Below are positions 1,297-4,723 of a stretch of DNA of 4,723 nucleotides, piece after piece. A model generated the notes under the pieces. That model was given only the letters and a program-made list of their open reading frames with translations. It was not told where the DNA came from and made no database searches. The translations under genes and the position numbers were made by a program. The stretch's first letter is position 1; every line of letters starts with the position of its first letter. The stretch is from a virus (taxonomy: Duplodnaviria > Heunggongvirae > Uroviricota > Caudoviricetes): the IMG/VR virus record IMGVR_UViG_3300029721_000076. One strand, given 5' to 3'.

Positions 1297-2379
1297 TTAG
1301 AACTGGTAAACCAGACCTACAGCGACGATGTCGTCGGTATCAATATCAGCTGTTTTGGTAAACTTACTATCGTCAATTAAGTTGATTTTGTAATCAACAA
1401 AAGTGGACATGTTTTTATTAAAGTAGTAAGTAGCACCGACATCGACATACTTGACTAAGTCTCGGTCACCATGAACACCAAGGTCTTTACCTTTTGACTG
1501 AAGGTAAGCAACAGATGGGCGCAGACCGAAGTCAAACTGATATTGTGCTACTGCTTCAAAGTTTTGTGCTTTGTTTGCAATATGGTTATTACCAAAAACG
1601 GTCATATTCTGAGTTTCAGAATATGTGGTAGCCAGATAGATATTGTTCGCATCATATTTCAGGCCTGCAGCCCATACTTCCGCATTTTTGCCGGAGGCAT
1701 TGAATTTGCTCTTACCATAGGCGACCTGACCGTCAGTGCGATCTGATTTAGCATAGGTTGCACCCACGCCGAATCCTTCATACTCATAAGTAGTGGAGAA
1801 ACCGAAACCATCACCATTGGCTTCAGTTACGTCAGTGCGGTCATTTTTACCCTGATACTGAGCAGCAAAGTTCAGGCCATCGACCAGACCAAAGAAGTCG
1901 TTGTTACGATAAGTTGCAACACCAGTAGTGCGACCAGTCATGAACACATCTGTTTGGGTCCAGGTATCACCACCGAATTCTGGCAGAACGTCAGTCCACG
2001 CACCGATGTCGTATGCTACACCGTAGTTACGGCCGTAATCGATTGAGCCGTAATCACCAAATTTCAGGCCTGCAAATGCAAGACGGGTTTTGTCTTTGGA
2101 AGAACCTTGAGATTCAGCGCGGTTGCCTTTGAATTCATATTCCCACTGACCGAAACCAGTCAGTTGATCGTTGATTTGGGTTTCACCTTTGAAGCCAAGA
2201 CGGGCATAAGTAGTATCACCATCATCTGCATCATTAGAGGAGAAGTAGTGCTTAGCATTAACTTTCCCGTACAGATCCAGCTTGTTACTGTCTTTATTAT
2301 AAATTTCAGCTGCCTGAGCAGACATCGCCATCAGTACTGATGCAGCTACAGCAGAAATTGCCACTGTTAATTTTTTCAT
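1297..2379 (-). CDS. nmpC: General outer-membrane porin, NmpC/OmpD family (OmpC/OmpF/PhoE superfamily), apparently intact
   Basis: 360-aa product [23 protein letters not shown]|[17 protein letters not shown]… ending …[12 protein letters not shown]. It has a typical signal peptide, the classic porin N-terminus and a C-terminal Phe. Start ATG at 2379 (complement of CAT 2377-2379) with AAAGGG upstream. The track's longer 380-aa start adds an unlikely 20-aa extension before the signal peptide. Confidence 0.92.
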
Positions 2380-2470
2380 CGTGAGCCCTTTTTTTGAACT
2401 ATTATTAAAAAATGATGTCACTGCGCGATAAATATTCATCTAATCAATGTGATTATTTCAAGATGTAAGT
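2380..2470 (-). promoter_or_regulatory. Putative nmpC 5' UTR / promoter region with candidate CRP half-site
   Basis: AT-rich sequence directly upstream of the nmpC ATG. It contains AATGTGAT (TGTGA at 2449-2453), matching one CRP half-site; the second half-site is weak. No unambiguous -10/-35 pair could be fixed by eye. Confidence 0.3.
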
Positions 2471-2951: not shown

Positions 2952-3167
2952 ATGAAATCCATGGATAAGTTAACAACGGGTGTCGCCTATGGCACCTCAG
3001 CAGGTAGTGCCGGGTACTGGTTTTTACAGCTGCTAGATAAAGTCACGCCCTCACAGTGGGCGGCAATTGGAGTGCTGGGTAGCCTGGTATTTGGCCTGCT
3101 GACGTACCTGACAAACCTTTATTTCAAGATTAAAGAAGATAAGCGCAAGGCTGCGAGAGGTGAATAA
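2952..3167 (+). CDS. essD: Class II holin (pinholin, phage 21 S-type) with dual-start motif
   Basis: 71-aa [34 protein letters not shown]…[13 protein letters not shown]. Met1 and Met4 (ATG 2952 and 2961) form the S21 antiholin/holin dual-start pattern. Two hydrophobic segments are present. RBS GAGGTGG at 2941-2947. Confidence 0.9.
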
Positions 3168-3664
3168 TGCCTCCATCATTACGAAAAGCCGTTGCTGCTG
3201 CTATTGGTGGCGGAGCAATTGCTATAGCATCAGTGTTAATTACTGGCCCAAGTGGTAACGATGGTCTGGAAGGTGTCAGCTACATACCATACAAAGATAT
3301 TGTTGGTGTATGGACTGTATGTCACGGGCATACAGGAAAAGACATCATGCTCGGTAAAACGTATACCAAAGCAGAATGCAAAGCACTCTTGAATAAAGAC
3401 CTTGCCACTGTCGCCAGACAAATTAACCCGTACATCAAAGTCGATATACCGGAAACAACGCGCGGCGCTCTTTACTCATTCGTTTACAACGTGGGTGCTG
3501 GCAATTTCAGAACATCGACGCTTCTTCGCAAAATAAACCAGGGCGATATCAAAGGCGCATGTGATCAGCTACGTCGCTGGACATATGCTGGCGGTAAGCA
3601 ATGGAAAGGTCTCATGACTCGTCGTGAGATTGAGCGTGAAATCTGTTTGTGGGGTCAGCAATGA
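3167..3664 (+). CDS. rrrD: SAR endolysin (phage 21 R-type lysozyme with N-terminal signal-arrest-release domain)
   Basis: 165-aa [42 protein letters not shown]… with a Gly/Ala-rich weakly hydrophobic N-terminal segment and a lysozyme-like body. The start overlaps the holin stop (TAATG). Confidence 0.92.
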
Positions 3665-4122
3665 ACAGAGTAACCGCGATTATCTCCGCTCTGGTTATCT
3701 GCATCATCGTCTGCCTGTCATGGGCTGTTAATCATTACCGTGATAACGCCATTACCTACAAAGCCCAGCGCGACAAAAATGCCAGAGAACTGAAGCTGGC
3801 GAACGCGGCAATTACTGACATGCAGATGCGTCAGCGTGATGTTGCTGCGCTCGATGCAAAATACACGAAGGAGTTAGCTGATGCGAAAGCTGAAAATGAT
3901 GCTCTGCGTGATGATGTTGCCGCTGGTCGTCGTCGGTTGCACATCAAAGCAGTCTGTCAGTCAGTGCGTGAAGCCACCACCGCCTCCGGCGTGGATAATG
4001 CAGCCTCCCCCCGACTGGCAGACACCGCTGAACGGGATTATTTCACCCTCAGAGAGAGGCTGATCACTATGCAAAAACAACTGGAAGGAACCCAGAAGTA
4101 TATTAATGAGCAGTGCAGATAG
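3661..4122 (+). CDS. rzpD: Rz-type inner-membrane spanin (i-spanin)
   Basis: 153-aa product from ATG 3661 ([23 protein letters not shown]…KYINEQCR) with an N-terminal transmembrane segment followed by a charged, helix-prone region. The start overlaps the endolysin stop (ATGA). The track's 3649 start is a non-ATG extension. Confidence 0.88.
3881..4063 (+). CDS. rzoD: Rz1-type outer-membrane lipoprotein spanin (o-spanin), embedded in rzpD
   Basis: 60-aa ORF wholly inside rzpD in another frame: [20 protein letters not shown]|TSKQ… with a lipobox (VVGC) and proline-rich mature part (PPPPPAW…PPPDW), the hallmark of Rz1. Confidence 0.85.
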
Positions 4123-4153
4123 AGCTGCCCATATCGATGGGCAACTCATGCAA

Positions 4154-4447
4154 TTATTGTGAGCAATACACACGCGCTTCCAGCGGAGTATAAATGCCTA
4201 AAGTAATAAAACCGAGAAATCCATTTACGAATGTTTGCTGGGTTTCTGTTTTAACAACATTTTCTGCGCCGCCACAAATTTTGGCTGCATCAACAGTTTT
4301 CTCCTGTCCAATTCCCGAAACGAAGAAATGATGGGTGATGGTTTCCTTTGGTGTTACTGCTGTCGGTTTGTTTCCAACAGTAAACGTCTGTTGAGCACAT
4401 CCTGTAATAAGCATTGCCAGAGCGGCAGAAAACAACATTTTTTTCAT
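4154..4447 (-). CDS. borD: Bor family lipoprotein (serum-resistance protein, Iss homologue)
   Basis: 97-aa product from ATG 4447: MKKMLFSAALAMLITGC|AQQTFTVGNKP…EARVYCSQ with a lipoprotein signal peptide and lipobox LITGC. AGGA RBS upstream on the minus strand. The track's 113-aa version is an unlikely upstream extension. Confidence 0.9.
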   Translation of the reverse strand: MKKMLFSAALAMLITGCAQQTFTVGNKPTAVTPKETITHHFFVSGIGQEKTVDAAKICGGAENVVKTETQQTFVNGFLGFITLGIYTPLEARVYCSQ

Positions 4448-4563
4448 CTTATTATCCTGCATTGTTAAAAACGGCAGAATCCTATGTGACAACAATTAAA
4501 CGATAGTTAAATGGATTGATGAAAATTAAAACTATATAGGTGGATGCTCAGCCTATTGGAGGA

Positions 4564-4571
4564 GGGGGGGG
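4564..4571. repeat. Homopolymeric G8 tract (C8 on minus strand) in the borD upstream intergenic region
   Basis: GGAGGGGGGGGCAC read directly from the sequence; lies between the right-edge ORF stop and the borD start. Confidence 0.85.
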
Positions 4572-4604
4572 CACTCAGAATCCTGTGGAATGAAATAAAC
4601 CGCT

Positions 4605-4723
4605 CTATCTGTCCATTACCCTTTTAGCTGCGCTGTATCGTCGCTGAACCGCCCCGGGTTTCCTGGAGAGTATTTTATCTGTGAACTCAGGCTGCCAGAT
4701 CATCGTTTCCGATGGAAGCATAA
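4605..4723 (-). CDS. Partial ORF at right edge (ybcV-position gene, product unknown)
   Basis: This is the only minus-strand frame open at the edge: …MLPSETMIWQPEFTDKILSRKPGAVQRRYSAAKRVMDR*, stop TAG (complement of 4605-4607). The ATG at 4721 may be internal, so the gene probably continues beyond the window. Confidence 0.3.
   Translation of the reverse strand, partial: MLPSETMIWQPEFTDKILSRKPGAVQRRYSAAKRVMDR
4644..4669. repeat. Right copy of the 26-nt imperfect inverted repeat (partner 65-90)
   Basis: Reverse complement matches 65-90 at 24/26 positions; similarity decays outside the core. Confidence 0.7.

Follow-up and report, generated by a model that had tools for sequence, protein, structure and literature searches.

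A length-polymorphic poly-G tract at the edge of the bor/iss moron of a lambdoid prophage

The DNA analysed here, a stretch of 4,723 bases that is called the window throughout, is the late region of a lambdoid prophage, as judged from the list of its open reading frames (ORFs) and from annotated relatives. The following genes were assigned, together with the homopolymer that lies to the right of the last of them.

139-501: rusA
709-1107: gene for a Q-type antiterminator
1297-2439, minus strand: gene for an OmpC/NmpC-like porin, apparently intact
2952-3167: holin gene
3167-3664: lysozyme gene
3649-4122: Rz, with the embedded Rz1 at 3881-4063
4154-4447, minus strand: bor-family lipoprotein gene, prophage 'iss' allele, 97 aa, assigned from the ORF, the protein identity and the RefSeq 'iss' annotation
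4564-4571, no strand assigned: G8.C8 homopolymer, length-polymorphic in related prophages (G5-G10, mode G6), established by the sequence, by shuffles and by a multi-locus comparison

In K-12 an IS5 element, and in E. coli B an IS1 element, breaks the counterpart of the porin gene at 1297-2439.

The lipoprotein gene has the features of the Lambda_Bor/Iss moron, namely a 97-aa lipoprotein with the lipobox LITGC that is encoded after Rz/Rz1 on the opposite strand, as in the case of lambda bor, DLP12 borD and ColV iss, and in related loci the proteins encoded at this position are assigned to PF06291. Its product is identical at 97/97 residues to the RefSeq 'increased serum survival lipoprotein Iss' of CB8671 and at 96/97 to the iss products of E2865 (O26) and REL606 (E. 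coli B), as against 88/97 for K-12 BorD and lambda Bor. The bor-family gene is thus the prophage 'iss' allele and not K-12 borD, so that the sequence-only reading, in which it had been named borD, had the right family and the wrong allele. The name matters because lambda and K-12 DLP12 lack, upstream of bor/borD, the whole segment of ~69 bp (window about 4541-4610 in the alignment) that bears the tract; gene names taken from K-12 therefore cannot be carried over to this region. We also observed an A7/T7 run at 4438-4444 inside the bor/iss ORF (ATG AAA AAA ATG), in frame, by which iss could be switched off more directly than by the G tract.

The right edge of the window is occupied by the end of an insertion sequence (IS), which is overlapped by a short open frame.

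4605-4721, minus strand: 38-aa 'right-edge ORF', an out-of-frame IS/phage chimera and not a gene
4645-4723, minus strand: right end of an IS3-family IS (IS629/IS1203-like), recognised by IS-end matches, by the alignment break at 4644/4645 and by the transposase C-terminus

Similarity to intact phages ends at 4644, and positions 4645-4723 match thousands of IS3-family (IS629/IS1203-like) ends, the assignment to this family being based on the 79 bp of the element that fall inside the window. The terminal inverted repeat starts with TGAACCGCCCCGGG, in agreement with the TGAAC... pattern, and the transposase C-terminus, YASIGNDDLAA (the last 11 codons, with the stop at 4689-4687 on the minus strand), is identical to that of the annotated IS3-family transposase of E2865. 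The tract and the element to its right are 73 bp apart, and the transposase of the element reads toward iss/bor. The 'right-edge ORF' had been taken for a neighbouring gene, and this does not hold, since the frame at 4605-4721 spans the IS/phage junction and is out of the transposase frame. A neighbour of the K-12 kind, ybcV, was likewise rejected, as the right edge is the IS3-family end; in relatives, the natural neighbours of the iss allele are a dubious 37-aa ORF and then ylcI. The exact IS/phage junction of the window found no match in 5,426 complete E. coli genomes, IMG/VR, the GTDB representatives and the JGI metagenomes. Insertion sequences have entered the spacer between iss and cos more than once: in the O26/O111/O103 STEC clade (E2865, 3350-4700), an IS1203-like element with the same orientation lies ~100 bp further to the right, and in CP025886 (5305-6900) an IS66-family element lies only ~25 nt upstream of the iss ATG, an insertion by which the putative promoter described below has been removed.

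We then examined the homopolymer itself. The tract reads ...TATTGGAGGA GGGGGGGG CACTCAGAATCC... on the plus strand, where the eight Gs occupy 4564-4571, and it is consequently a C8 run on the bor-coding strand. It starts 117 bp upstream of the bor-family ATG (4447-4445, minus strand), and the earlier description of an 8-G run 'about 115 bp' from the bor start was thus accurate. The G8 run is the only homopolymer of at least eight bases in the 4,723-base window, the next longest being T7 runs. In dinucleotide-preserving shuffles, the expectation for G8/C8 was 0.10 per window, and at least one such run appeared in 14 of 200 shuffles; the G8 is uncommon, yet not statistically extraordinary from composition alone. 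In terms of prophage organisation, the tract is located in the spacer between the bor/iss moron and the ylcI-cos region of the lambdoid prophage. The spacer also contains two copies of a direct repeat, 101 bp apart, which may be the remnant of an old partial duplication.

4475-4486, plus strand: direct repeat CAGAATCCTRTG, copy 1, overlapping the putative -10 element
4576-4587, plus strand: direct repeat CAGAATCCTRTG, copy 2, immediately to the right of the tract

The run is a property of some alleles of this region only. A common sister allele has GGAGGA-AGTTGGGGA-CAC at the tract position, and the one ColV-type plasmid iss that was examined, on pEC6622-2, has TGGTAGGT there. The upstream regions of lambda bor, K-12 DLP12 borD, pEC6622-2 iss and the AGTTGGGGA allele are thus free of the tract, and the long run is therefore lineage-specific and not needed by the family in general.

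To describe the tract in related prophages, its length was collected from three independent collections. In the IMG/VR and metagenome scan, which used exact 17-nt flanks and left the middle free, 103 IMG/VR loci were distributed over G5 (4), G6 (45), the interrupted form GGGAGG (4), G7 (27), G8 (14), G9 (6) and G10 (3), and 38 loci on metagenome contigs over G5 (1), G6 (21), GGGAGG (2), G7 (4), G8 (8) and G9 (2). For complete genomes, a 90-nt query with the tract at its centre found matches in 2150 of 5426 E. coli genomes, and 60 rows were taken at even steps of the ranking; 25 of these 60 carried the homopolymer allele, which corresponds to about 900 genomes, and the match span and identity indicated roughly 14 G6, 6 G7, 2 G8, 1 G9 and 2 G10 among them. 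Direct alignments placed the differences in the run itself: the window and phage PhiR68_2 have G8, Lambda_2G7a and E2865 have G6, and CB8671 has G10. The tract ranges from G5 to G10 with a mode of G6 across all three collections. The sequence-only reading had proposed that the run is prone to slippage and had named an invariant length across isolates as an observation that would refute this; indeed, lengths of G5-G10 were found among otherwise identical sequences in the three collections, so that the length is not invariant and the proposal stands. The interrupted variant GGGAGG, present at six loci of IMG/VR and the metagenomes, always has the same length, which fits a point mutation that stabilises the run. 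In addition, a 468-bp contig of the Thiomicrorhabdus heinhorstiae HH1 assembly (NZ_JACBGI020000059.1) is 99.8% identical to the REL606 iss upstream region, G7 included, and almost certainly represents E. coli contamination of that assembly.

The variation is carried on otherwise invariant backgrounds and is inherited. Among 17 haplotypes with more than one member, five were mixed in tract length despite 1390+70 identical flanking bases, and a lower bound that does not depend on a tree gives at least 7 tract-length changes where the 1460 flanking bases had none. On neighbour-joining trees built from ungapped, closely related flanks, the tract requires 23-43 parsimony steps, as compared with about 0.1-0.2 steps per site for the flanking sites. 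The minimum over 200 tip shuffles was 32-60 steps, and since the observed steps are fewer than in any of the 200 shuffles, the lengths are inherited and are not random noise. Two further runs in the same loci served as controls. The T7 run in bor codons 2-3 (4438-4444, 120 bp from the tract) had a length of 7 in 146 of 149 loci, the exceptions being two loci with a length of 6 (a frameshifted bor or an error) and one that was unmatched, and an A5 run was constant in 149/149. Because the T7 control is stable in the very loci in which the tract varies, sequencing noise does not explain the variation of the tract.

Within clones, the length is stable, as was seen for the G6 and G7 alleles in 60 STEC genomes and three B strains. 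REL606, BL21(DE3) and BL21-AI all have G7. The tract of E2865 was read directly as G6, and among the best-listed O26/O111/O103 STEC genomes, 60/60 showed a 525-bp match span and an identity equal to those of E2865, which implies G6. The tract thus does not appear to be a rapid switch at the level of the clone, and the modal G6 is a short and relatively stable length.

The position of the tract was then considered relative to the bor/iss promoter. The borD gene belongs to the PhoP regulon (PMC5740661), and in PhoP-activated promoters of 'architecture I' the box, a direct (T/G)GTTTA-N5-(T/G)GTTTA repeat, is located 12 nt upstream of the -10 hexamer (PMC3335776). Lambda and K-12 DLP12 have a perfect PhoP box, TGTTTA-GGGTT-TGTTTA, which lies 53-69 bp upstream of the ATG in K-12 and has TACGAT 12 nt downstream of it. 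From the positions that align with those of lambda and DLP12, we infer the location of the bor/iss promoter in the window as follows, and the shared part of the module is given with it.

4400-4562, no strand assigned: upstream part of the bor/iss module, with 100% identity to HK97-like (P27-type terminase) prophages
4479-4484, minus strand: putative -10 element TAGGAT (TACGAT in lambda), 12 nt downstream of the box, proposed from the sequence and the 12-nt rule of PMC3335776
4497-4513, minus strand: PhoP-box-like direct repeat CATTTA-ACTAT-CGTTTA, a putative bor/iss activator site at the aligned position of the lambda/DLP12 box

The box-like repeat has three mismatches and on its own is not above chance; its spacing to the -10 element is the same as in lambda and K-12, and the layout of box, 12 nt and -10 aligns with the promoter region of these morons. 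The window differs from them in that its PhoP box is degenerate and in that it has the extra ~69-bp segment with the G tract. With this layout, transcription would start near 4472, and the tract would span about -92 to -99 and lie 50 bp upstream of the PhoP box. It would thus be located outside the interval between the promoter elements (putative PhoP box and -10, 4513-4479), where a promoter homopolymer of the phase-variable kind is situated. On the minus strand, a -10-like hexamer, TATAGT, is present at 4536-4531, ~30 bp downstream of the tract in the direction of bor, and a second promoter nearer the tract could in principle exist there. A promoter scan around the tract found no sigma-70 consensus site covering it.

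The boundary of the module was also clearly defined. In ~290 genomes and in phage vB_EcoS-733R4, which have HK97-like packaging genes, bor and the 115 bp upstream of it are 100% identical to the window through 4562, and these relatives are wholly unrelated to it past 4562/4563, a sharp mosaic boundary. Since the shared identity stops at 4562, the mobile unit to which bor belongs stops 1-2 bp short of the tract.

The coding and structural potential of the tract was also assessed. The ORF scan returned a single ORF of at least 20 aa that crosses the tract, as follows.

4544-4627, plus strand: 27-aa ORF at G8, judged to be spurious

This ORF is put out of frame across the tract at G6/G9 and G7/G10, and its ATG is missing in sister alleles, which have GGTGG--GCTC and GGTGTACGCTC in its place. 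The bor ORF ends 117 bp away, so that the tract does not lie inside a conserved protein-coding frame, as it would in translational phase variation. A coding role was thus rejected, the only crossing ORF being 27 aa long and not conserved. The terminator scan revealed no terminator-like hairpin over the tract, the predicted folds of the two strands were no better than those of shuffles (z-scores of +1.3 and +0.3), and no Rfam match was found over the tract; with all three negative, a reading as a terminator or structured RNA was also rejected. The motif GGAGGAG8 could give a G-quadruplex of the two-tetrad type only, which we judge to be weak.

Several explanations can be offered for such a run. 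Homopolymers are commonly miscalled by several sequencing platforms, and the G8 of the window, or much of the apparent polymorphism, might accordingly be a sequencing or assembly error. Because the exact IS junction of the window is present in no other searched assembly, its own tract length is without an independent replicate, and an error of +/-1 may apply here; part of the length spread could also be platform error in G/C homopolymers. Against this, phage PhiR68_2, strain AR_0013, 14 IMG/VR loci and 8 metagenome loci all show G8 with identical flanks, the lengths track phylogeny better than in every shuffle, the control runs T7 and A5 hardly vary across the loci compared, and the 60 STEC genomes and the three B strains agree exactly within each group. 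The suggestion that the run 'could equally be' an artefact has thus lost its force: recurrence of G8 in independent assemblies, the phylogenetic signal and the stable T7 largely exclude a pure artefact, and we regard this explanation as improbable. Still less credible, and indeed the least credible of those considered, is a role in structure or coding, whether as a frameshift-prone small ORF (4544-4627, plus strand), as a two-tetrad G-quadruplex in GGAGGAGGGGGGGG, or as a C-rich Rho-loading or terminator element that would insulate bor from upstream or IS read-through. The 27-aa ORF does cross the tract at G8, a weak two-tetrad G4 is conceivable on the G-rich strand, and C8UCCUCC occurs in the minus-strand RNA; however, the ATG of the ORF is absent in sister alleles, the two commonest lengths, G6 and G7, shorten it to 15-17 aa, a three-tetrad G4 is impossible with these runs, hairpin, fold and Rfam searches were negative, and the element is missing from other bor/iss contexts.

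The main alternative would be a contingency locus, in which slippage of the C8 re-spaces a distal element relative to the PhoP-dependent promoter, or in which a second promoter contains the tract in its spacer or UP region, so that sub-populations would differ in a serum-resistance lipoprotein. The length is indeed polymorphic in identical backgrounds, the tract lies upstream of a gene for an outer-membrane virulence lipoprotein, which is the usual kind of target, G8-G10 alleles as long as true contingency tracts exist, the -10-like TATAGT is found ~30 bp downstream on the bor strand, and the region is flanked by the 12-nt repeat. Even from an upstream position, a tract may in principle alter how distal sites are phased, or the shape of the DNA nearby. 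On the other side, the tract would lie 50 bp upstream of the putative PhoP box rather than between promoter elements, a scan of its surroundings gave no sigma-70 consensus promoter, and the bor module common to other phages stops before it. In addition, lambda, DLP12, the examined plasmid iss and the AGTTGGGGA allele do without it, the mode is G6, neither the B strains nor, judged by span, the 60 STEC genomes vary in length, and no report of such a tract was found in the literature searched. We thus consider a contingency locus in this broad sense unlikely, and the specific form of it, a simple-sequence switch that re-phases an upstream element against the PhoP-dependent iss/bor promoter, somewhat less likely again. 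The proposal that the run modulates bor or the neighbouring gene finds no support in the anatomy of the locus, where the tract is in no ORF, is not between promoter elements and would be 50 bp upstream of the putative box; it is further weakened by the position outside the bor module, the alleles without the tract, the clonal stability and the identity of the 'neighbour gene' as an IS end. A regulatory role for the tract is, in sum, unlikely.

We thus favour, with good though not complete confidence, the explanation that the G8 is a genuine, hypermutable mononucleotide microsatellite, a slippage hot spot, neutral or nearly neutral, in the non-coding spacer at the edge of the bor/iss moron. Replication slippage by slipped-strand mispairing, which we infer as the mechanism, would alter the tract length far faster than mutation alters the flanking bases, and would generate the G5-G10 alleles seen across E. 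coli prophages. With the tract outside the putative promoter and outside the bor module, changes in its length would most probably have little or no effect on bor/iss expression, and the variation would be neutral rather than a phase-variation switch.

This behaviour is that predicted by mutation-accumulation work in E. coli, in which longer runs have exponentially higher indel rates and the 8-bp G.C runs of leu tRNA genes were outliers and indel hot spots (PMC8510543). The tract resembles these mononucleotide hot spots in organism, run type, length and expected behaviour, and differs in that they were scored in mutation-accumulation lines, whereas the tract was compared across natural isolates (PMC8510543). 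It also differs in being intergenic on a mobile prophage module, so that its variants would persist and spread.

Homopolymer slippage that generates virulence variation is usually credited to Neisseria, Haemophilus, Campylobacter and Bordetella. Phase variation by promoter homopolymers includes the poly-G/C tracts of Neisseria porA, opc and fetA and, in the fim genes of Bordetella, a poly-C tract between the BvgA site and the -10 element, and frequent slippage usually needs at least 8 G/C. The tract shares with these systems a G.C run upstream of a surface or virulence gene and single-unit changes between close relatives, and slipped-strand mispairing is likely here too. In contrast to them, it would lie ~50 bp upstream of the putative PhoP box and not inside the promoter, its modal length is 6, it did not vary within the clones seen (G6, G7), and other alleles are tract-free. 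We therefore do not class the tract as a phase-variation locus, as it appears to lack the defining promoter geometry. No description of a poly-G tract or of a promoter upstream of iss was found in the literature searched, and the tract is a new instance of a well-known kind, the variability of which is real but ordinary.

The iss gene serves widely as a marker for avian and extra-intestinal pathogenic E. coli. If expression did depend on tract length, 'iss-positive' strains could differ in their Iss output, and if the tract were a contingency switch, lysogen populations would be heterogeneous in surface Iss and the locus would be a rare case of slippage-based virulence phase variation in E. 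coli. As it stands, the tract is a hypermutable microsatellite of a prophage spacer, of little consequence in itself. It is a known kind of trap for homopolymer errors in assemblies, and it serves as a warning that the iss upstream region of this allele cannot be read as that of K-12 borD. The tract could, in turn, be tried as a fast-evolving marker to sub-type iss-bearing prophages.
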